From an uncultured archaeon (GTDB lineage Archaea > Asgardarchaeota > Thorarchaeia > Thorarchaeales > Thorarchaeaceae), in the NCBI GenBank assembly GCA_964354495.1, contig CAYHAA010000003.1, positions 28,606-60,605 on the forward strand: DNA of 32,000 nucleotides. The letters run 5' to 3'. The notes under the pieces were generated by a model. It searched no databases. It was given only the letters and a program-made list of their open reading frames with translations, and had not been told where the DNA came from. Position numbers and translations under genes: made by a program. Positions 3,980 to 14,461 of this stretch are shown here, piece by piece (the first letter of the stretch is position 1; the number at the start of each line of letters is the position of its first letter).

Positions 3980-4777
3980 ATGCAGCTGTTTTCCGATCCA
4001 ATATCAATGGGATTCATGGCAAGCCTCCTGGCCGGTGGGGCTACGGGTCTAGGAGCTCTACCCATCTTCGTGAAGAAAGACTTCAGTCGAAGAGCGCTTG
4101 ACCTAATGCTCGGCTTTGCTGGTGGAGTCATGCTTGCAGCCTCAGCATTCAGTCTGCTTGTTCCAGCCTTTGAAGACGCTGGAGTGGTAGCAACTGGTTG
4201 GGTCGGTGTGTTCTCTATCGTTGGTATGGGATTCTTGCTCGGAGCAGGATTCGTTCACCTCGCTGACAAGTACATGCCTCATGAGCATTTCAAGAGAGGG
4301 CATGAGGGGCCCTCGTCGAGGCTGGCCAGGGTCTGGCTTCTTGTGATTGCAATAACGATACACAATCTCCCTGAGGGGCTTGCCGTGGGTGTGTCCTTTG
4401 GAGGCGGGCACACAGCCATAGGCCTCTCTGTGGCTGTCGCCATAGGGTTACAGAACATCCCAGAGGGACTGGCTGTCGCTGCTCCGCTGGTCCGCGAGGG
4501 CTATTCGAGAAAGTATGCAGCTGCTCTTGCTCTTGCTACCGGCCTGGTAGAACCAATCGGCGGCCTGATTGGAATCTCCGTTGTGACATTTGCCTTGACC
4601 CTATTACCCTATGGACTCGCGTTCGCAGCTGGTGCAATGATATTCGTCGTCGGAGATGAGATGGTTCCGGAGAGCCATTCCGGTGGGAATGAACGGCTGG
4701 CTACGTGGGGACTGATAGCCGGGTTCATCGTCATGATGTCTCTTGATAATGTGTTCATATTCATCTTTGGGGGATAG
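3980..4777 (+). CDS. ZIP family metal transporter (ZupT/GufA-like)
   Basis: GFAGGVMLAAS.FSLL.PA, HNLPEGLAVGV, LQNIPEGLAVA, FAAGAMIFVV.DEM.PESH motifs. Confidence 0.95.
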   Translation: MQLFSDPISMGFMASLLAGGATGLGALPIFVKKDFSRRALDLMLGFAGGVMLAASAFSLLVPAFEDAGVVATGWVGVFSIVGMGFLLGAGFVHLADKYMPHEHFKRGHEGPSSRLARVWLLVIAITIHNLPEGLAVGVSFGGGHTAIGLSVAVAIGLQNIPEGLAVAAPLVREGYSRKYAAALALATGLVEPIGGLIGISVVTFALTLLPYGLAFAAGAMIFVVGDEMVPESHSGGNERLATWGLIAGFIVMMSLDNVFIFIFGG

Positions 4778-4828: not shown

Positions 4829-5569
4829 TCACGCCTTGTTCTGCATCTCGACTTCTTTTCTCCACGCCAGTCGTTTCCCGATGTGACTCCGTAGTCTCCA
4901 TTTCACGGACTTGGGATGGGATGCAATTGCCTCTCTTATCAGCATGAGTCTCTTTAGTACCTCTTGTGCGATCTCTTCTTTTAGATGATACTGTCTCATG
5001 AAATCTGCACAGGCATCAAGAGTTGTCATGGCGTCTTGATAGAGACCCCAACTCCTGGCGCACAACGCTCCAATATACCTGATATTGATGGTCTCTGGGG
5101 CATCCTCCTCTCCAAGAGGAAGGTCTTTCACGACTGTGATGATGTCTCTGTAGTCTTTCTCATTCATCTTCGTGATGATGAGCTTGGTCACCAGGATGTC
5201 ACTCACTGAAATTGTGTTCTTCTCGATATCAAGTCGGTCTCTCAGGTCAATATCGTGCTCCATTCGGAGGTGGTCCAGAAAGACATCAACATGGTCGTCT
5301 GAACCAGGCTTCTCAAATAGAAGGCGAGTCCCCCCAGAGGTGAATCTGAATTGTGTATTCTCACGATAGCCGAGGTCTTGGATGGTCTCGATTATGGCAG
5401 ATGATTGCTGTGAAAGACCCACACAATCAATGTCCCCATGGTCACGCTCACAGAACTCGAACTGCTTACAGTGTTGTCTGACTGCTAGGCCCCCTGCTAG
5501 CCTGAGCACGACTCCTCGCGCTCTCGCTTTGTCTATGATGCGCATGGACTCGACAACTGTGTTTTCCAT
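4829..5569 (-). CDS. Uncharacterised nucleotidyltransferase-fold protein
   Basis: RLAGGLAV...RDHGDIDCV (GG.A...D.D NTase signature), plus VDVFLD and KLII...NEKDYRDI. The start was moved to ATG 5569, which has GAGGCG upstream. Confidence 0.65.
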   Translation of the reverse strand: MENTVVESMRIIDKARARGVVLRLAGGLAVRQHCKQFEFCERDHGDIDCVGLSQQSSAIIETIQDLGYRENTQFRFTSGGTRLLFEKPGSDDHVDVFLDHLRMEHDIDLRDRLDIEKNTISVSDILVTKLIITKMNEKDYRDIITVVKDLPLGEEDAPETINIRYIGALCARSWGLYQDAMTTLDACADFMRQYHLKEEIAQEVLKRLMLIREAIASHPKSVKWRLRSHIGKRLAWRKEVEMQNKA

Positions 5570-5647
5570 CTGTTCGCCTCGAATATCAAATAGCAGCACG
5601 GCAACATATACACTTGGTAATGTGCATAGAGCCGGAACGGCAAGACA

Positions 5648-5660
5648 GCAACGTTAATAT
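5648..5660 (+). promoter_or_regulatory. BRE/TATA-like element GCAACGTTAATAT upstream of tRNA-Asn
   Basis: Ends 28 nt before the tRNA 5' end; identical to 3723-3735. Confidence 0.65.
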
Positions 5661-5687
5661 TGCTCTCACCGCCGACTCCCTACTCAA

Positions 5688-5908
5688 GCCATCGTGGCTC
5701 AGCTAGGTAGGCGACCTGCAGAGGTCGGCCTAAAGCGACAACATATTGGGCTTGTCCCAGTAGGTCGCTCCAGCCTGTTATCTTTCGATCAGGTGATCGG
5801 GAGCCAGACAGTTGTAATGCATCACGTTTCGTGGTGCGTGGCGAATGGTCGGAGGTTCGAGCGTTGACCTGCGTGCCAGGTCGACAGACAACCCTCCCGA
5901 TGGCGCCA
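5688..5908 (+). tRNA. tRNA-Asn(GTT) with five introns: 5711-5733 (22/23), 5740-5771 (28/29), 5781-5809 (37/38), 5816-5845 (43/44), 5862-5891 (59/60)
   Basis: Joined exons give GCCATCG TG GCTC AGCTAGGTA GAGC G ACAGC CTGTTAA GTTGT TGGTC GGAGG TTCGAGC CCTCC CGATGGC G CCA = 77 nt. All four stems pair, and the anticodon GTT and discriminator G73 fit Asn. Each removed segment is a hairpin with BHB spacing. Confidence 0.9.
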
Positions 5909-5934
5909 TTTGTATAAATGATTGTTTTACTAAA

Positions 5935-8673
5935 TCAATCGAACCAGTTAGACCATTCTTTCTTGTCTAGCCAGTTTTCGACGATTCCCCTCAGCCAATT
6001 CTCCACTTCATTTCGCTTCCGTTCATCATTGGGGGGACAAATAGTCCCCCATCGGATAGCATCATCCTTTCTGGCAGTGCCCGCGAGATTTCTCACTGAT
6101 ACTCTATCTGATTTTGGATAGTACCTGACCATAGTGGTTGACAATGATATTCTAATGCCTAGGCTCTCAGCAATCTTCTTTTCATCCTCAACGAGATTAT
6201 TCGGCGAGTCATGGATTGCCGCAATAAGATGTTTAGCTGCGTCCGCCTTCATAGAATCCTCACTGAACTGAAGCTTTTCCAGCTTGCCATAGGCTAGACT
6301 GTATTGCGGAACGAGGCCCTCTGTTTGCGTTCCTTCATCAATGATTAGATTGATCTCTGGTGTAGAAACGATTGACCTGAAATCGTGCTTACCACCTTCG
6401 TTGCCATCGTACAGTGCATGATTTCTGTTCCATGAGAAGCCTTTGCTTGTCGAGAAGTTGCCATCCTCCGGGATTAGTTCCTCCAGATACGCTCGTCGCG
6501 CCTCCTCAGACCAGTTCACGAATCCCTTAGGCAGACCGGGATTCTGTATAGATTTGCTCCCCGGTGTCATCCCTTCATGAATCATCATAAGACCGATCTG
6601 ATTCTGTATATGGACCTCATAGACACCCTTTCGGAACGGCCCCTCAAGTGTGATATCGCCAAAGTTACGGAGTATCTCTTGGACCTTTGCTATGCGCTCA
6701 AGACTTGCCTGATTGTACATGGTGTTCCCGGACTCCCCAAGGTAGCTGTCGCTGACAATGATGGCCGCAAGCCGTGCCTTGAGAACCTCTAGTTGTTTCC
6801 CTGACGGAAAACGCGGGTTGTCTATCCCGGCCTGCCCATTGATACCAGTGACCTTGTTCACACGACCCTCGAGGTCAGACAACCTACCATCCGTGCTGTC
6901 AAGATAGAGCCGAATGACCTTCCCCTCCAGCCGGGTGCTCTTCCGCTCTATGGGATGCGCTCGTGCAGCCGCTCCATCCCCTTCATCTGTCAGCTGCCGG
7001 ATGACTTCATTCAAGTGCCTCAGCGACTGAGACTTATCGCCCTCAGCCCCGAGTCTCCTGCCAAGGTCTTCAATGAAATTGGTGTATTCAAAACGATTGT
7101 TGAAGTAGTAGAACTGGTCCTCGTACACATCGACCAATTCATCCGTTCTTGATTTCGGAATCCATGTATAGACCCGACCGTTGACTGCTGCAACCCGGAG
7201 AGAATCTTCACCAATGCCAAGTCTCTCTGAGAGTGATCTCTCCAGCTCGCTTCTCTCTGTTCGAATGAGCCGCTCAATCGTCGCCATCGTTTCGCTGTGG
7301 ACTGCTGGTCTGAAGTCCGCGTATCGTACTCTCTTCGTTTCATCCAGCACGGTTCGATTGATGCCTTCCAGGGCGGCTGCGATATCATCAACAGAGATGT
7401 CCTTCCCATCTCTCAGGTGTTCGACAGCCCTTCGAATGACCTGCGAATCGATTTCATGAACTCCAGTTCTGTCTTCAGAACGCTCAGGTCGTGTTTTGAT
7501 TTCTTTCACTCTAAATTCTCTAAGAGCATCCTCACTAATCTGAGGACCCGACTCGTACCATTCTCTGAGCATCTTCTCCTCCTCGTGATGCCGAAGGTGC
7601 TTGATCAGCGTGGGCTCGACGCCTTTCCGCCACTCGCCTGCAATCCCGTGCCCAACATTGTATTTCTTGGCTTGTTCATCTCTCTTCAGTGAGAAGTCGC
7701 CTTTAATCTCGAAGTATATTCCACAATGACGATATCTTTCATCAAAATCAGGACTGTTTCGTTCCTGCTGATGCTTCTCAAGTAGACTATCTACATCCTT
7801 CATTGACTCAATCTTGAGTTCAGGAGGACCACCGTGGATAGTTTCGTACATGCGCCGAATCTCACGGTTCTCTACCTCTTTCACAAGCGATGGTTTGACT
7901 GAATTCCTGTCATCTGCAGAGTCAAAGTAAGATTTGACATCTTCAATCTGCAACTGATACGATCTTTTGTATTCCAGCTCCGGATAATGCTCACAGGCCT
8001 CTTTGAACTCCTCCCTCGTTCGTATCTCCCCAAAACGAGGCTTACTCTCCCGTAGGTCGTCAACTGGCGCGTTGCCCTCTCGATGTTCTCCAGATTTCAC
8101 AGGGTGCTCTCTTGGCACATCAGCATCAGCCCTCGCCAGTCCCTCCGACAGGGTCTCTCTGTTCCATTCCTTCTGGTCCCGCTCTGATAGAACTGACCTC
8201 ACCCGACCATCATTCAGCTCCTGAATCCTAATAGGCACCTCTCGGGCTGGCTCCCTCTCCTCAAGACTCTCCTGGATGTAGACCTTGGTCTTCTCTGCAC
8301 TATCTATTGCTACTGGTGCACTACGGGTAATCTCAGAAACCTCCGGACCCGAGCCACCCTCAACCTTCGTCTTCTCCGGATGGTCATCCCTGATGGACTC
8401 CAGCGCCTCTCTCAGCCTGCTCTCAGTGGACTCTCTCCGTTGCTCCATCCGCCCGAGGTCCTCAAGAGCCGCCGCCAACTTCTGCGCGATCCGCTCCTCC
8501 CTGCTTTCCCGCTGAGCCAGGTCTTCCAGTGCCTCCCGAAGGCGACCTTCCACAGGAGTCCGTGACTCGCCCGCCTCGTCGATGCGGGTCTCCCCCAGAT
8601 CCTCGGCCCCTCGGGGCAGGTCGTCCCCCTCACCTCGTCGTCCGCGCCGCTCGACCGACCGCCCCGCCATCAC
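5935..8673 (-). CDS. Large hypothetical protein (912 aa) with acidic coiled N-terminus, HTH-like segment and C-terminal double LAGLIDADG-like endonuclease domain
   Basis: LAAIIVSDS and LEELIPEDG motifs ~97 aa apart, the second preceded by K....GLPKGF..WSEEARRAYL as in intein-type DOD endonucleases. N-terminal repeats RLREALEDL/KLAAALEDL/RLREALESI. No intein splice residues seen. Confidence 0.6.
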   Translation of the reverse strand: MMAGRSVERRGRRGEGDDLPRGAEDLGETRIDEAGESRTPVEGRLREALEDLAQRESREERIAQKLAAALEDLGRMEQRRESTESRLREALESIRDDHPEKTKVEGGSGPEVSEITRSAPVAIDSAEKTKVYIQESLEEREPAREVPIRIQELNDGRVRSVLSERDQKEWNRETLSEGLARADADVPREHPVKSGEHREGNAPVDDLRESKPRFGEIRTREEFKEACEHYPELEYKRSYQLQIEDVKSYFDSADDRNSVKPSLVKEVENREIRRMYETIHGGPPELKIESMKDVDSLLEKHQQERNSPDFDERYRHCGIYFEIKGDFSLKRDEQAKKYNVGHGIAGEWRKGVEPTLIKHLRHHEEEKMLREWYESGPQISEDALREFRVKEIKTRPERSEDRTGVHEIDSQVIRRAVEHLRDGKDISVDDIAAALEGINRTVLDETKRVRYADFRPAVHSETMATIERLIRTERSELERSLSERLGIGEDSLRVAAVNGRVYTWIPKSRTDELVDVYEDQFYYFNNRFEYTNFIEDLGRRLGAEGDKSQSLRHLNEVIRQLTDEGDGAAARAHPIERKSTRLEGKVIRLYLDSTDGRLSDLEGRVNKVTGINGQAGIDNPRFPSGKQLEVLKARLAAIIVSDSYLGESGNTMYNQASLERIAKVQEILRNFGDITLEGPFRKGVYEVHIQNQIGLMMIHEGMTPGSKSIQNPGLPKGFVNWSEEARRAYLEELIPEDGNFSTSKGFSWNRNHALYDGNEGGKHDFRSIVSTPEINLIIDEGTQTEGLVPQYSLAYGKLEKLQFSEDSMKADAAKHLIAAIHDSPNNLVEDEKKIAESLGIRISLSTTMVRYYPKSDRVSVRNLAGTARKDDAIRWGTICPPNDERKRNEVENWLRGIVENWLDKKEWSNWFD

Positions 8674-8680
8674 GCACCCC

Positions 8681-11506
8681 TCACACGCTCACGCCCCGGA
8701 TGGCAACCAGTATCTCCGCCAGCACAGCGGTCTCCTTTGGCTCATGCAGGGCTCCGGCAGCGTGGAGCAGCAGCCGCTCGGCGAAGGACACCAGCTCCGA
8801 CCTCTCTGAACAGAACTGCTCAGCGACCGCCTTCAGCATCTGTGCCACCGGGACAACGTTGCCCGTACAGGCGGTCCGCACCCGTGGGAGGTACGCGTCA
8901 GTGAACATGGGCGACCTGACGATGTCGGAGATGTCGGTCTCCGGCTCCGCGGCGAGCGCTATCGCCCGGGGCGCCATGACAGGGGGTAGCATCGGCGACA
9001 CAGGCGGGGCGGTGACGGCGGAAGGAGGGCGGACACCCCTGAGGAGGTCCCTGAGCTCCGGCGGGAGCGGGTGGCTCTCCCTGAGCTCCGGGTGGGCGTC
9101 GAACTCCCTCTTCATCGCATCCCTGACCACGGTGTCGGTCCACTCGCGCCGGGGCAGGGGACTCTTGAGCAGGTGCTGGAGGGGCTCCACCTGGATGTTG
9201 CCAGGGACCCTCTGGACCTTGAACCGGACGACCGCTTCTCCCACGCTCATGCCGCCGATGTGTTCGACCTGGGCGTCCGTGCACAGGGCCTGCCTGCCGA
9301 CGAGCTGGCGCTCCTCAAGGTCGGTCAGGGTGTGGATGATCACATTGGCGGGGAGCTTGACGACCTCAGGGATGAGCATGCCCGGGAGCTGGTCGTTGAT
9401 GAGGATGGAGAGCCCTGTCCCCCGCAGGGTCCGGAGCATCTCGACCAGGTTGTCCTTCGCCTTCTGCGGGGAGGTGGGCTCGGCATACCCGGCAACGGCG
9501 GTCGCTCGCTTGAGCAGGTGGTGCGCCTCCTCGAGGACCAGCAGGTGGCTCACCTCCTTCCTCGGGTTCGCAACGAGGTACTCGCTGATGCCAGTGGTGA
9601 GGGCGCCCATGAGCAGGGCCCGGTCCTCGGGGGAGAGGTCACGGGTCTCGATGATGGTGGGGCGGGAGAGCAGCTCGGGGATGGTGAGCCCCTTAGGCGT
9701 GTTGAGCATGTCCACGAGGATGTCGTTCCGGAACATGCTCCGGAGACGCGCCTCAAGGGCACCGTAGAAGTCCTGGCTCATCTCCGCTCCGTAGGAGATG
9801 TGCGCGGTCGCCACCTCCTGGAACGCCTCGTAGAGGTCGACGAGCAGAATGGGGCGACCCCTGACATTGCCCATCCGTGTCCAGCCACAGGCGGTGTACA
9901 TGGTGTTGAAGATGTCATCAAAGTGCATGGAGAGGACCCCATCGTTCGGGAGCGTGGCAGCATAGACGTCGGCCATCCTGTCGATGTACTTTCCAACCGG
10001 GACGTTCGGGGGGACATCCCACATGTTGTACCGAAGAGGAGCGACATCGGGATTCCCTGCGGTGAAGATGCGGAACTCGGGAAAGACATCCTTGAGGACC
10101 CGCCAGTCACTGACATTTCCGGGGGTGATGATGACAGGGATGACGCCGTTCCGATAGGCCTGAGCTGCGATGTTCACGCAGGTGGTAGTCTTGCCAGAAC
10201 CAGTGTTCCCGTAGACCCCGATATGTGACTCAAGCAGCTTCCGGGTGAGACCGTAGGGCTGGTGCCTCTGGGGAGCGCCGTTTCGGATCGCATACCCGAG
10301 GAGGATGAGCTCCTTCACAGGCAATCGCCAGATGGTGCCCGACTCCTGTGGCGTAGATGGACTGTTGTGATGCCTGAGAACTTGATGGGACTGTGCATAC
10401 TCGACCATGGTCGTGGATTTGGGGGGCTCCTCTGCAGGCGTCACAGTCGCGGGAATGTCAACACTTGAGACCGCGAACTCCTCTCGCCGAGAGACCCTGA
10501 TGCCAAGGTCGCAACGCGGCAACCCGAAGAAAGTGACAGCCTCATCGGGGGTGAGGATGGTATGGTTTCCGAAGGGTAGACCCGCCAGCGCTCTCTCAAA
10601 GTCCTTCTTGCTCTTCTTGACCATGATCCTCATGTCCTCCTCCCTGTCAGCCGGGGTGATGCTGCTCAGAAGGATGGACATCACGCGCTTCGCCTGTTGC
10701 TCTGCCACCCTCTTGTCCTGATGCCAGTGGGTCGCACTGACCACGACCTTGCCCAGATAGCGACTGCTCATGCGTTTGATCTGCCTGTTGAGCCGCTCAG
10801 CCTCCCGAGAGGAACGCGCGCTCACTCTGGTGGTGGACTGCTGGGAGTCATGAGAGAAGAGGCTGGGTGACGACACGACCTGCTGGGACCGGGACACTGC
10901 CATCTCGTATGCATGTTCAAGACTCCTGACCTTTCGCCCACTGGAACTCTCAGGGGTGACAAAGACCTGAAAGAGGACATCGTCGAGACCCTGAATGACT
11001 TCGCCCACAGCATCGAGGGGATCCACACGCGATGGGAGGGAGGCGTTCTCATCCTCAACAAGGGGTTCGCCAGTCAGGCATGCCGAGACTCCCTCTCGTC
11101 CGGGATCTATCTGCAGACCCGAGAATGCGGAGCAGGCGCCCATCTTGAACTTTGGCAGGTGTGCACTCACCGTGGTGCTGAGCGAGGTGAGCCTGTGATA
11201 CAGACCGTCGGCATTTCGGTCCCATGTCAGAAAGAAGACCCGTGTCTTACCATGAGCACGTTCTAGTCGAAGACCCACTGGATGCTCTCCAAGGACCATC
11301 GCCCGAAGAATACCTCGGAAGGCAGACCTATGGGTGAAGTCCCTCTTGCCGACCTCAGACCGGGAGAGATAGTCCTCGGGTATCTCAAGCACCTCAATGG
11401 CTCCGACCGCGAGCGGACCTAGTAATGACTCAAACAATACTGGCACCTGTAGACTACTGCGCATAGAAGGTACCAAAACCCTTGGACGAGAGTAGAACTC
11501 CGTCAT
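8681..11506 (-). CDS. FtsK/HerA/VirB4-superfamily ATPase (DUF87-like) with a long N-terminal domain
   Basis: HIGVYGNTGSGKTT (Walker A), HLLVLEEAHHLL (Walker B), LRTLRGTGLSILINDQLP motif. Stop lies 7 nt before the next start, with GAGGGGTG between them. Confidence 0.85.
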   Translation of the reverse strand: MTEFYSRPRVLVPSMRSSLQVPVLFESLLGPLAVGAIEVLEIPEDYLSRSEVGKRDFTHRSAFRGILRAMVLGEHPVGLRLERAHGKTRVFFLTWDRNADGLYHRLTSLSTTVSAHLPKFKMGACSAFSGLQIDPGREGVSACLTGEPLVEDENASLPSRVDPLDAVGEVIQGLDDVLFQVFVTPESSSGRKVRSLEHAYEMAVSRSQQVVSSPSLFSHDSQQSTTRVSARSSREAERLNRQIKRMSSRYLGKVVVSATHWHQDKRVAEQQAKRVMSILLSSITPADREEDMRIMVKKSKKDFERALAGLPFGNHTILTPDEAVTFFGLPRCDLGIRVSRREEFAVSSVDIPATVTPAEEPPKSTTMVEYAQSHQVLRHHNSPSTPQESGTIWRLPVKELILLGYAIRNGAPQRHQPYGLTRKLLESHIGVYGNTGSGKTTTCVNIAAQAYRNGVIPVIITPGNVSDWRVLKDVFPEFRIFTAGNPDVAPLRYNMWDVPPNVPVGKYIDRMADVYAATLPNDGVLSMHFDDIFNTMYTACGWTRMGNVRGRPILLVDLYEAFQEVATAHISYGAEMSQDFYGALEARLRSMFRNDILVDMLNTPKGLTIPELLSRPTIIETRDLSPEDRALLMGALTTGISEYLVANPRKEVSHLLVLEEAHHLLKRATAVAGYAEPTSPQKAKDNLVEMLRTLRGTGLSILINDQLPGMLIPEVVKLPANVIIHTLTDLEERQLVGRQALCTDAQVEHIGGMSVGEAVVRFKVQRVPGNIQVEPLQHLLKSPLPRREWTDTVVRDAMKREFDAHPELRESHPLPPELRDLLRGVRPPSAVTAPPVSPMLPPVMAPRAIALAAEPETDISDIVRSPMFTDAYLPRVRTACTGNVVPVAQMLKAVAEQFCSERSELVSFAERLLLHAAGALHEPKETAVLAEILVAIRGVSV

Positions 11507-12015: not shown

Positions 12016-12492
12016 ATGGCGGAGACCAAGGTGACAGTCGAGGTCATCAACATTCTCGGAAACGGCAAGTGCTCGATAGGACAGAAGGTGGGTGATGTGT
12101 ACCGATATCCCGAGGATTTAGGGAAGATGTGCCCACACGCGTTCTATATTCTGTATCCTTGGATTATGGTCATGCAGTCTGGTGGCAGTTTTGAAACATC
12201 TGGCGATGGCCACGACTACATGACTGTTGGGTATACAACAGTTACAGGAATCTTAGACAGAGTTGGACATGTTTCGCTGGGACTTTATATGCTCGTGGGA
12301 CAGATAGTGATGTGAGGTTGACTAGACACAGATTCTGACCTCACAGAGTCGTTCCCAGTGCCGTTTCTGGGAGGGCAGCACTCTGGTGTCCAAGATTGTC
12401 CAACTAACAATGAACGGTGCAGTGATTACACACACCAAGTTGTGTACAGGATTTCACGCAAGAGCGTAGGAAACAGGGAGACTCGGCCGTAG
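12016..12492 (+). pseudogene. TIGR04076-like small Cys protein interrupted by a 186-bp insertion
   Basis: The 5' part MAETKVTVEV...GKCSIGQKVGD...MCPHAFYILYPW...YMTVG joins in frame to CSDYTHQVVYRISRK...* (12418-12492) when 186 bp are removed, giving 96 aa. Confidence 0.8.
12233..12418. mobile_element. MITE-like 186-bp insertion (boundaries slide over a GGT direct repeat)
   Basis: GGT at 12230-12232 and 12416-12418. Imperfect subterminal inverted repeats AATCTTAGACA (12249-12259) / TGTCCAAGATT (12387-12397) and AGTTGGACA (12261-12269) / TGTCCAACT (12397-12405). Internal hairpins GTGAGGT/ACCTCAC and CAGAGT..TTCCCAG/CTGGGAG..ACTCTG. No transposase. Confidence 0.65.
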
Positions 12493-12619: not shown

Positions 12620-13279
12620 TTGATAGGCAGGGACAGTAGCGTGAAAGTTGAAGTCGATGTATCTGAGTTAGAGTGGGGAAACTCCTACAAGGATGAGAAG
12701 TGCAGAGAGGTGGAGGGAATCCTTCAGGGAAGTCCACAATATGCAGAATGCGAGGTGAAACGCGCCCGCTATGAGGATAATCAGAGTGAAGACCCGTTCT
12801 ATGTGCTGGATGAGAAGGAGGAGGAGATTCTCATGCTCGAAAGATGGGAGGTGTACGCATTGAGCGGTTCCGAATTCCTATCCTACATCGGCGTCCAGAG
12901 GTGGCGGAGTCAGACATCGTTTAGGATGTTCTTTGCCTATGGTCCGCTTCTTCTTCCTGGCTTATTCGCGACAGGTTGCGCATTAGTTGCACCCTTCTTT
13001 CTATATATGGGTGAATATGAGTCGTTTTCATTCTCGATAGATTGGGCTGTGCGGAGCACCGCCATCTTGTTGTTTACGGGGCCACTCGCCTACCTGCTAT
13101 ACCGACACACAGAGTCGCGGAAGAAGAACATGGATCTGAGAACCGTAGAGAAGGACCCCTCATTTCTCAATGCGCTCCGGAGAGTCGCTGAGGCAGCCGA
13201 GGCTGACAGATACAGGAGAAAGGAGTTTGCTAAGAGGGTGAAGCATCTTGAAGATGCAGTGGCAGGTATCAATTCATGA
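12620..13279 (+). CDS. Hypothetical membrane protein (two predicted TM helices)
   Basis: 219-aa ORF with hydrophobic stretches FFAYGPLLLPGLFATGCALVAPFFLY and TAILLFTGPLAYLLY. Its 3' end is conserved in a paralogous remnant at 14237-14365. Confidence 0.7.
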   Translation: MIGRDSSVKVEVDVSELEWGNSYKDEKCREVEGILQGSPQYAECEVKRARYEDNQSEDPFYVLDEKEEEILMLERWEVYALSGSEFLSYIGVQRWRSQTSFRMFFAYGPLLLPGLFATGCALVAPFFLYMGEYESFSFSIDWAVRSTAILLFTGPLAYLLYRHTESRKKNMDLRTVEKDPSFLNALRRVAEAAEADRYRRKEFAKRVKHLEDAVAGINS

Positions 13280-13372
13280 GAGAGACGACTCTACAGATGC
13301 ACCATCTCTCCGCGCGTTATCTCTTATCTTCTTCAGACTTCTTTCTGAGGCCTGCTGGATACCAAAGTAGCT
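13151..13372. repeat. Imperfect direct repeat, copy A (tail-to-tail junction of two convergent genes)
   Basis: Aligns with 14237-14461 at an offset of 1086 bp; 65/74 identity over 13203-13276 vs 14289-14362. Confidence 0.88.
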
Positions 13373-14236: not shown

Positions 14237-14461
14237 AATGAACGCTCATTTCTTGACATGTTACAGAAACTCACTGATGCACCCGAAACTGACAGATACA
14301 GGAGAAAGGAGCTTGCGAAGAGGGTAAAGAATCTTGAAGATGCATTAGCAGGTAATGATTCATAAGAAGACACGACGTTACGGATGCATCCCTCTCTCTG
14401 CGCGTAGTTTCTTATCTTCTTATTACTTCTTTCTGAATCTCTGCCTAATATTGAAGTAGCT
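14237..14461. repeat. Imperfect direct repeat, copy B (remnant 3' ends of two paralogous genes)
   Basis: The plus frame reads NERSFLDMLQKLTDAPETDRYRRKELAKRVKNLEDALAGNDS* (paralog of the 12620-13279 C-terminus). The minus strand reads SYFNIRQ-(frameshift)-SERSNKKIRNYAQREG. Confidence 0.85.

Follow-up and report, generated by a model that had tools for sequence, protein, structure and literature searches.

A VirB4-like ATPase and a giant LAGLIDADG-type protein encoded as a pair at tRNA 3' ends of Thorarchaeota, a candidate homing cassette

In a 32,000-nucleotide (nt) stretch of a Thorarchaeaceae (Asgardarchaeota) genome (assembly GCA_964354495.1, contig CAYHAA010000003.1, positions 28,606-60,605; hereafter the window), an ATPase gene is followed by the gene for a very large protein, here called the giant, which ends head-on to a tRNA-Asn gene. 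The ATPase gene (8681-11506, minus strand; 941 amino acids (aa) in the open reading frame (ORF) list, 927 aa in the database version, which begins at the second Met) and the giant gene (5935-8673, minus strand; 912 aa in the ORF list) are co-oriented and 7 nt apart (8674-8680, minus strand), as described in an earlier note made from the sequence alone. Inspection of the sequence also places a Shine-Dalgarno-like GAGGGGTG there, overlapping the ATPase stop codon and directly preceding the GTG/ATG start of the giant gene. The tRNA-Asn(GTT) gene (5688-5908, plus strand) resolves into six exon blocks separated by five introns when aligned to an intron-less relative, and because of these introns it was missed by both ARAGORN and Rfam. 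The same alignment bore out the previously noted distance, with 26 nt separating the giant stop codon from the A of the encoded CCA. Comparison of relatives revealed a promoter motif, CAGCAACGTTAATAT (5646-5661, plus strand), that is conserved ahead of Thorarchaeota tRNA-Asn genes and also precedes broken tRNA-Asn copies.

The genes flanking the module are housekeeping genes, and a ZIP zinc-transporter gene recognised by Pfam (3980-4777, plus strand), which lies outside the element, serves as an orientation landmark for the tRNA-Asn locus. A Pfam scan of the 27 window ORFs found neither an integrase nor a relaxase, and no direct repeat of the tRNA-Asn 3' end of the attachment (att) type occurs in the window at up to three mismatches, so that the earlier statement that none of these features is visible holds; such a tRNA 3'-end repeat is present beside giant remnants at two other loci (L040 and L195). 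In the window's whole genome (97.7% complete) the tyrosine-integrase family PF00589 had 0 matches, with 14 of 14 controls positive, and PF04956, used to look for a pilin or channel outside the window, had no match either. Genes for a pilin or a VirB6/CedA channel were found neither among the window ORFs by Pfam nor as a constant neighbour of the loci studied. The GC content at third codon positions is 0.67-0.92 over most of the ATPase gene, 0.72-0.80 in the first 100 codons of the giant gene and 0.42-0.66 thereafter; six flanking genes have values of 0.51-0.60. The start of the giant gene, about its first 100 codons (8370-8673, minus strand), thus resembles the ATPase gene, and this segment tracks the ATPase across loci. 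Among the sequencing runs listed, none of RNA holds the locus, and contigs from four runs contained no piece spanning it.

The ATPase has an intact P-loop domain of the FtsK-HerA type, with the Walker A motif GNTGSGKT at residues 433-440 (10187-10210, minus strand) and the Walker B region LEEAH at residues 658-662 (9521-9535, minus strand), which leaves the N-terminal part of about 430 aa that had been noted before. Its sequence matches are weak: DUF87 is matched in Pfam (E-value 7e-6), CedD (36 bits against a cut-off of 600), HerA and TraD stay far under their cut-offs in NCBIfam, and the CagE/TrbE/VirB4 family models match in neither database. The N-terminal domain (10454-11422, minus strand), folded alone from a 31-row alignment, gave a model with a predicted local distance difference test (pLDDT) score of 87 and a predicted template-modelling score of 0.83. 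The top 10 Foldseek matches of this model were all TrwK/VirB4 of plasmid R388 (E-values 2e-7 to 6e-6), and an independent VIA search aligned it to VirB4 over 273 residues (Z 15.3, root-mean-square deviation 5.4), the next match reaching Z 9.4. Because both searches point to VirB4, we set the protein apart from HerA: as modelled, the N-terminal domain has the VirB4 fold and no HAS barrel. The resemblance to DUF87 and coupling-protein ATPases that had been suggested in the earlier note is now refined to a VirB4-like fold. A hydropathy scan predicted three to four N-terminal membrane helices, mostly four, in most of the relatives of ~1020-1090 aa and none in the ~910-aa subfamily to which the window's ATPase belongs.

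The ATPase family was matched in 39 of 251 Asgard genomes and in 32 of the 59 genomes of the window's family; the named homologues of both proteins are from Thorarchaeota, and the Atlas clusters nearest to an ATPase homologue consist of unnamed DUF87 ATPases, ~900 aa long, from Bacillota and Actinomycetota. IMG/VR yielded distant ATPase matches only (3 of 244), and none of the 39 plasmid records matching the ATPase exceeded 80% coverage. The N-terminal domain also contains a conserved helix-hairpin-helix arm (10769-10940) with a Ser/Thr-rich hairpin and a hydrophobic tip, which, judging from the model, could be a channel or membrane contact within a ring. In L078, a distant relative from bacteria, the N-terminal part contains a long stretch rich in Ser and Thr.

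The giant consists of an acidic, low-confidence or disordered start with long helices, a helical middle resembling helix-turn-helix (HTH) folds, an alpha/beta domain and a C-terminal two-domain LAGLIDADG part (model pLDDT 77). This last part, assigned by structure match as a monomeric two-domain endonuclease (5962-6807, minus strand), is most similar to the TliVMA intein endonuclease (Z 17.9), PI-PfuI (16.4), I-Tsp061I (15.5), and WhiA and I-DmoI (both 15.0), the matches spanning residues ~510-905 only. The fold thus vindicates the LAGLIDADG call of the earlier note, even though no family of Pfam, NCBIfam or PADLOC (0 in each) matches the giant; a PDB profile search returned nothing below E 0.1, with I-Tsp061I at E 1.6. 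Both acidic motifs are intact, with the conserved Asp641 (6748-6750, minus strand) and Asp736 (6463-6465, minus strand; numbering of the 911-aa protein). Across 208 homologues that span the domain, 206 retain Asp641, 208 have Asp or Glu at 736 and 203 retain the basic Lys885. WhiA is catalytically dead. Unlike in WhiA, the catalytic acids of the giant are near-invariant, and we infer for this reason that the giant is an active nuclease rather than a WhiA-like binder. It also departs from the archaeal LAGLIDADG endonucleases that share its fold, as it is a free-standing ORF with no Pfam intein match, outside the classical intron or intein setting, and carries ~620 additional N-terminal residues. 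The giant family was matched in 57 of 251 Asgard genomes and its profile matches 564 clusters at 50% identity; none of 60 pattern matches in IMG/VR contigs was a giant, and none was found among annotated phages. Co-folding of giant residues 37-904 with the ATPase tail (826-927) scored 0.09, which is evidence neither for nor against contact.

To assess the linkage of the two genes we used 38 ATPase loci, comprising 34 fetched from 73 ATPase rows and chosen for downstream room, three paralogues from the window's own genome and the window itself. In all 38 a large co-oriented gene lies within ~300 nt downstream of the ATPase (in L062 beyond a split ATPase), and in 37 this partner is acidic at its start. 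The C-terminus of the partner is of the window-type LAGLIDADG family in most loci, canonical LAGLIDADG in three (L001, L042 and L050), NUMOD3 repeats plus HNH in one (L002), HTH arrays with a terminal Cys/His motif that looks HNH-like by eye in one (L069), and unrecognised in four distant ATPase loci; to judge from these domains, the partner slot holds homing-type nucleases of four kinds. Linkage was less strict when viewed from the other gene, since among 77 distinct giants 25 have an ATPase upstream and 36 have none, the others being at contig edges. The window's genome alone encodes four intact family ATPases, each with a giant, together with one ATPase remnant and further lone nucleases. 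At one of its loci (L159, contig C4) only a C-terminal ATPase tail (9580-10368) lies upstream of a 1268-aa acidic LAGLIDADG giant (5769-9575), and another (L161:2485-6171, contig C3) encodes a 1228-aa protein that starts like the lone giants, has no Pfam match and is possibly a further effector type.

The two halves of the pair do not share one history. Over 22 pairs, ATPase and nuclease identities were barely correlated (Mantel rho 0.14, p 0.055), while the first 110 residues of the partner followed the ATPase over 33 pairs (rho 0.35, p 0.0007), a correlation that could be explained by physical closeness alone; as related genomes are not independent, all p-values given here overstate. The ATPases of L058 and L059 are 95% identical and their nucleases 47%, and the nucleases closest to that of the window among the pairs (51% and 49%) partner unrelated, membrane-anchored ATPases, both at tRNA-Asn. 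The module is thus not a fixed two-gene unit: the nuclease end has been exchanged from one ATPase to another and goes with the tRNA site.

This tracking of the tRNA site, and not of the ATPase, by the nuclease is new here and was seen at several levels. With a tRNA detector from which one false match (L118) was dropped and which misses tRNAs starting with A (e.g. tRNA-Met at L074), 21 of the 67 giants with sufficient room ended head-on within 130 nt of a tRNA 3' end, compared to 12 of 688 other ORFs of the same loci; the tRNAs concerned were those for Asn, Ser, Ala and others. In the window's own nuclease clade (at least 48% identity), nine of ten members, including the window, lie at tRNA-Asn (the label of L045 being assigned by hand from a partial tRNA), and the remaining member is at a contig edge. 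Searching with a pattern of promoter plus tRNA 5' end located tRNA-Asn in 60 of 86 family genomes and gave a set of 59 genes, or 57 after two contig-edge rows (L201 and L222) were left out, and at 23 of these 57 intact Thorarchaeota genes a head-on giant, a remnant or a follower gene (see below) was present. The tRNA-Asn genes themselves measured 76-228 nt (0-5 introns) across the 59 loci and varied even inside one genus, from which it follows that introns are gained or exchanged quickly. The intron at 59/60 did not differ significantly between carriers and others (p 0.26). The motif ATAGTTAA after the tRNA end was considered as the element end and rejected (7 of 23 carriers, 4 of 34 others, absent in the window).

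Carriers also differed in the state of the tRNA gene. An additional promoter with no more than the beginning of tRNA-Asn behind it, here termed a 5' stub, was found in 11 of 23 carrier genomes and in 3 of 34 others, with stubs and intact genes told apart by a four-motif test and, in two cases, by hand (L211 as intact, L196 as stub). Fifteen of 20 stubs end at nt 17-23; stubs below 15 nt would be invisible because the search pattern required the first 15 nt. In eight loci (L038, L040, L072, L073, L190, L196, L200 and L224) the stub lies upstream of the ATPase or the giant on the same strand, and in three (L075, L202 and L218) short, inverted tRNA 3'-end repeats sit just upstream of the promoter of the intact tRNA. 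With ZIP as the reference, the intact tRNA-Asn had the inverted orientation in 8 of 10 carriers and in 6 of 24 others, a count that may be biased by the longer regions fetched for some carriers. In genome G267 the promoter spacer of the stub is 97% like that of the giant-free G215 of the same genus, and the spacer of the intact tRNA is 84-88% like that of another genus and 43% like the stub spacer; G093 exhibits a weaker version of this pattern (93-97% and 68-72%). These spacers are most simply read as a joint arrival of module and tRNA that split the resident gene. The window's own tRNA promoter spacer is closest to those of giant-free relatives of its genus (74%). At six giant-free loci (L186, L187, L197, L199, L207 and L208) we observed tandem 12-15 nt repeats of the tRNA-Asn 3' end, 0.4-2.5 kilobases apart, in an integron-like array.

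Since relatives of the pair so often lie head-on at a tRNA that is doubled, broken or flipped, it is likely a selfish element. Observed directly were the folds, the conservation of the catalytic residues, the order of the genes, the head-on placement against tRNA 3' ends, and tRNA copies in carriers that are broken or inverted. On this basis we regard it as about an even call that the pair is a homing cassette without an integrase, which cuts tRNA-Asn, carries a replacement tRNA along and is moved between cells by its VirB4-like motor. In such a scheme, the predicted cut by the LAGLIDADG end of the giant falls in the tRNA-Asn gene on a recipient's chromosome, and repair of the break from the incoming DNA would install the cassette together with its own tRNA-Asn copy, the VirB4-like ATPase acting as the putative motor for cassette DNA or nuclease. 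Repair by homologous exchange would leave a clean locus in ancestral orientation, as in the window, and repair by end-joining would leave an intact but inverted tRNA at one flank, with the promoter and 5' tRNA stub at the opposite one. The giant might be coupled to its ATPase through its acidic N-terminus, recombination within the giant gene may exchange nuclease ends, and once the cassette has arrived its ATPase would be dispensable. A more far-reaching version is possible, although we would rather bet against it: a new class of mobile element, that is, a self-transmissible homing drive on archaeal chromosomes that dispenses with integrase, transposase and relaxase and whose VirB4-type motor delivers a tRNA-targeting meganuclease and its DNA, destroying the resident tRNA gene and installing its own allele. 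The pairing of ATPase and LAGLIDADG protein at tRNA 3' ends is real, conserved and unnamed, as the earlier note had suspected in not recognising it; the mechanism is plausible.

Several observations weigh against this homing-cassette proposal. The spacers of stub and intact promoters are identical in G245 and 81-85% alike in G134 and G158, and a foreign tRNA is therefore not required. Giant-free tRNA-Asn loci carry arrays of 12-15 nt 3'-end repeats around small genes and three giant-free loci have 5' stubs, so another process also acts at this gene. The window has neither a tRNA stub nor an att repeat and its tRNA is in the ancestral orientation, and with the detector used 46 of 67 giants had no head-on tRNA, giants of the Hermodarchaeota type adjoining other genes. 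A D-loop intron that would render the element's own tRNA immune was considered and rejected, as it is not enriched in carriers (9 of 23 versus 14 of 34); the intron at 37/38 is weakly enriched (22 of 23 versus 25 of 34). On the side of the motor, the absence of an ATPase beside 36 of 77 giants indicates that it is not needed to keep the nuclease gene, the window's ATPase (of a ~910-aa subfamily) has no membrane helix in the hydropathy scan, and no VirB2, VirB6 or relaxase partner was identified for it.

The strongest competitor, which we consider unlikely but still deserving of weight, grants the ATPase and its acidic partner a membrane-transport role of their own, to which free-standing homing-endonuclease genes were repeatedly fused at the partner's 3' end, spreading at tRNAs via host DNA exchange and unserved by the ATPase. 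Under this explanation one would expect the near lack of correlation between ATPase and nuclease identities, the divergence of the nucleases of L058 and L059 behind almost identical ATPases, the giants that stand alone and the four distant loci whose acidic partners have no recognised nuclease. However, four unrelated nuclease types occupy the same slot, in frame with an acidic N-terminus, which suggests selection for a nuclease, and intact ATPase-giant pairs are found at the 3' ends of several kinds of tRNA.

The combination of a constant-type acidic N-terminus with an interchangeable, nuclease-bearing C-terminus is also that of polymorphic toxins, and PMC3482391 describes the delivery of toxins by FtsK-related pumps in systems of types VII and IV. 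The ATPase might accordingly secrete the giant into neighbouring cells, where an essential single-copy gene would be cut, with a small downstream gene conferring immunity. A candidate for the latter exists: a ~200-aa follower gene overlaps the giant stop codon in 17 of 77 giants and occurs as orphan copies in L053 and L061; its product has no Pfam match and is unrelated to the ATPase. The follower is nevertheless missing behind 60 of 77 giants, including that of the window, where tRNA-Asn comes after 26 nt and no immunity-type gene lies directly downstream. Moreover, LAGLIDADG is mentioned 0 times in the searched text of PMC3482391, and a pure toxin does not explain a doubled and inverted tRNA, so that we hold this explanation to be improbable.

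Even less probable is that the nuclease replaces a relaxase in the donation of chromosomal DNA, cutting the donor near its own tRNA so that a transfer origin would arise there, with the ATPase pumping the DNA out as proposed for Tth111II/TdtA in Thermus. The layout is indeed that of ICEth1 of Thermus thermophilus, where, in the account drawn from PMC5365140, an FtsK-HerA-superfamily motor and an endonuclease lie at a tRNA 3' end without a relaxase. Archaeal transfer systems without recognisable relaxases are described in the sections used of PMC9905601, and the truncations we observed are on the side away from the tRNA. Yet the breaks lie in the resident tRNA copy, fitting a cut on the recipient side, the tRNA-side end of the element has no fixed position, and the Ced VirB4-like ATPases are needed for import, not export (PMC11868833, in the passages cited). 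The integrase, 47-bp att repeats, NurA, methylase and HerA-like TdtA of ICEth1 (PMC5365140) are, furthermore, all missing from our module. Anti-virus defence of the HerA-nuclease type (Sir2-HerA, DUF4297-HerA), in which one cytoplasmic complex would destroy invading or host DNA, is hardly credible: despite weak ATPase matches to PADLOC mad8 (E 2e-12), HerA (E 5e-11) and PDB HerA entries (E 4e-10) and the status of tRNA ends as hot spots for islands, the N-terminal domain resembles VirB4 and has no HAS barrel, every NCBIfam score is far under its cut-off, the giant has no PADLOC match and is not NurA, Sir2, DUF4297 or another PADLOC effector, and the nuclease, which often occurs alone, belongs to the homing type with long sites. 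Of the two roles envisaged in the earlier note, transfer or secretion therefore fits best, given the VirB4-type fold and the N-terminal membrane helices of most relatives, and defence of the HerA-nuclease type is not supported.

How does the proposed homing cassette compare with known systems? For homing, two alleles must meet in the same cell, and for this reason free-standing homing endonucleases are, to our knowledge, known mainly from phages and organelles. In fungal mitochondria, mORFs are endonuclease genes that travel with a piece of their target gene and displace the resident piece; here, the target would be a tRNA gene, a whole tRNA with its promoter appears to travel, and a motor ATPase is attached. 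SegB of phage T4 is, in the portion of PMC2330249 considered, a free-standing homing endonuclease of a tRNA gene cluster that recognises a tRNA-gene motif and spreads itself along with neighbouring tRNA genes. The giant would share this target logic and the position of a stand-alone endonuclease beside tRNA genes, although SegB is a phage GIY-YIG enzyme that meets its target by co-infection (PMC2330249) and the giant is a 912-aa LAGLIDADG protein of a cellular chromosome coupled to a VirB4-like ATPase. With VirB4/TrwK and with CedB, CedD and TedB, as far as they are covered by the relevant parts of PMC11868833 and PMC9905601, the ATPase has in common the VirB4-type N-terminal and P-loop domains, and many relatives are membrane-anchored as are CedB and CedD. 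Unlike type IV secretion systems, Ced and Ted, the loci have no linked pilin, VirB6/CedA channel or coupling protein, and a genome holds several ATPase paralogues, every one paired with a separate nuclease. The pair thus belongs neither to the integrative and conjugative elements, nor to the Ced, Ted or type IV secretion systems, nor to the HerA defence systems.

In the open full-text literature, subscription papers and supplements being outside this scope, we found no such ATPase-nuclease-tRNA module in print. LAGLIDADG together with VirB4 retrieved one intein paper only, VirB4 had a count of 0 in the best 20 of 62 matches on VirB4 and Asgard or Thorarchaeia, and term searches in the available text of PMC11529989, PMC13700489, PMC6393860, PMC4158269 and PMC3482391 returned no such module. 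A cassette equipped with a type IV-like motor of its own would demonstrate how homing could operate from one prokaryotic chromosome to another, and it bears on archaeal DNA movement without relaxases, a question left open in the part of PMC9905601 used here. It would also offer a testable cause for doubled, inverted and intron-rich tRNA genes in the closest relatives of eukaryotes and, if true, the homing drive would spread intron-rich tRNA alleles through Thorarchaeota. The 564 clusters at 50% identity would further represent hundreds of new meganucleases, of predicted activity, for which the neighbouring tRNA indicates the likely target.

Some further features were noted around these loci. 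DUF87 ATPases also occur in another form, in which winged helices are fused to them (L157:5712-8135 and L004:7712-9448); it is intact on contig C15 and broken beside a tRNA-Ser giant on contig C18. Two-helix membrane proteins of 82-84 aa (L155:7225-7473 and L156:6151-6405), with relatives near the ATPase loci L048 and L054, look pilin-like by eye, with no support from PDB or NCBIfam. Between ZIP and the tRNA, the window encodes a 256-aa protein (4829-5599) with a nucleotidyltransferase-like motif by eye and no Pfam or NCBIfam match. A non-coding repeat of ~85 bp (12334-12423), with 27 genome matches at 76-89% identity and no Rfam match at gathering score, folds as a hairpin and is possibly an element like a miniature inverted-repeat transposable element or a regulatory element. 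A direct duplication (13151-13348 and 14237-14436, 79-83%) involves the 3' end of a 219-aa membrane-protein gene (12620-13279). A relative of this gene at L038 has tRNA 3'-end repeats on its flanks, and on a relative's contig such a repeat lies immediately before the position equal to window 12574; in view of these repeats, the island may reach to ~14440.

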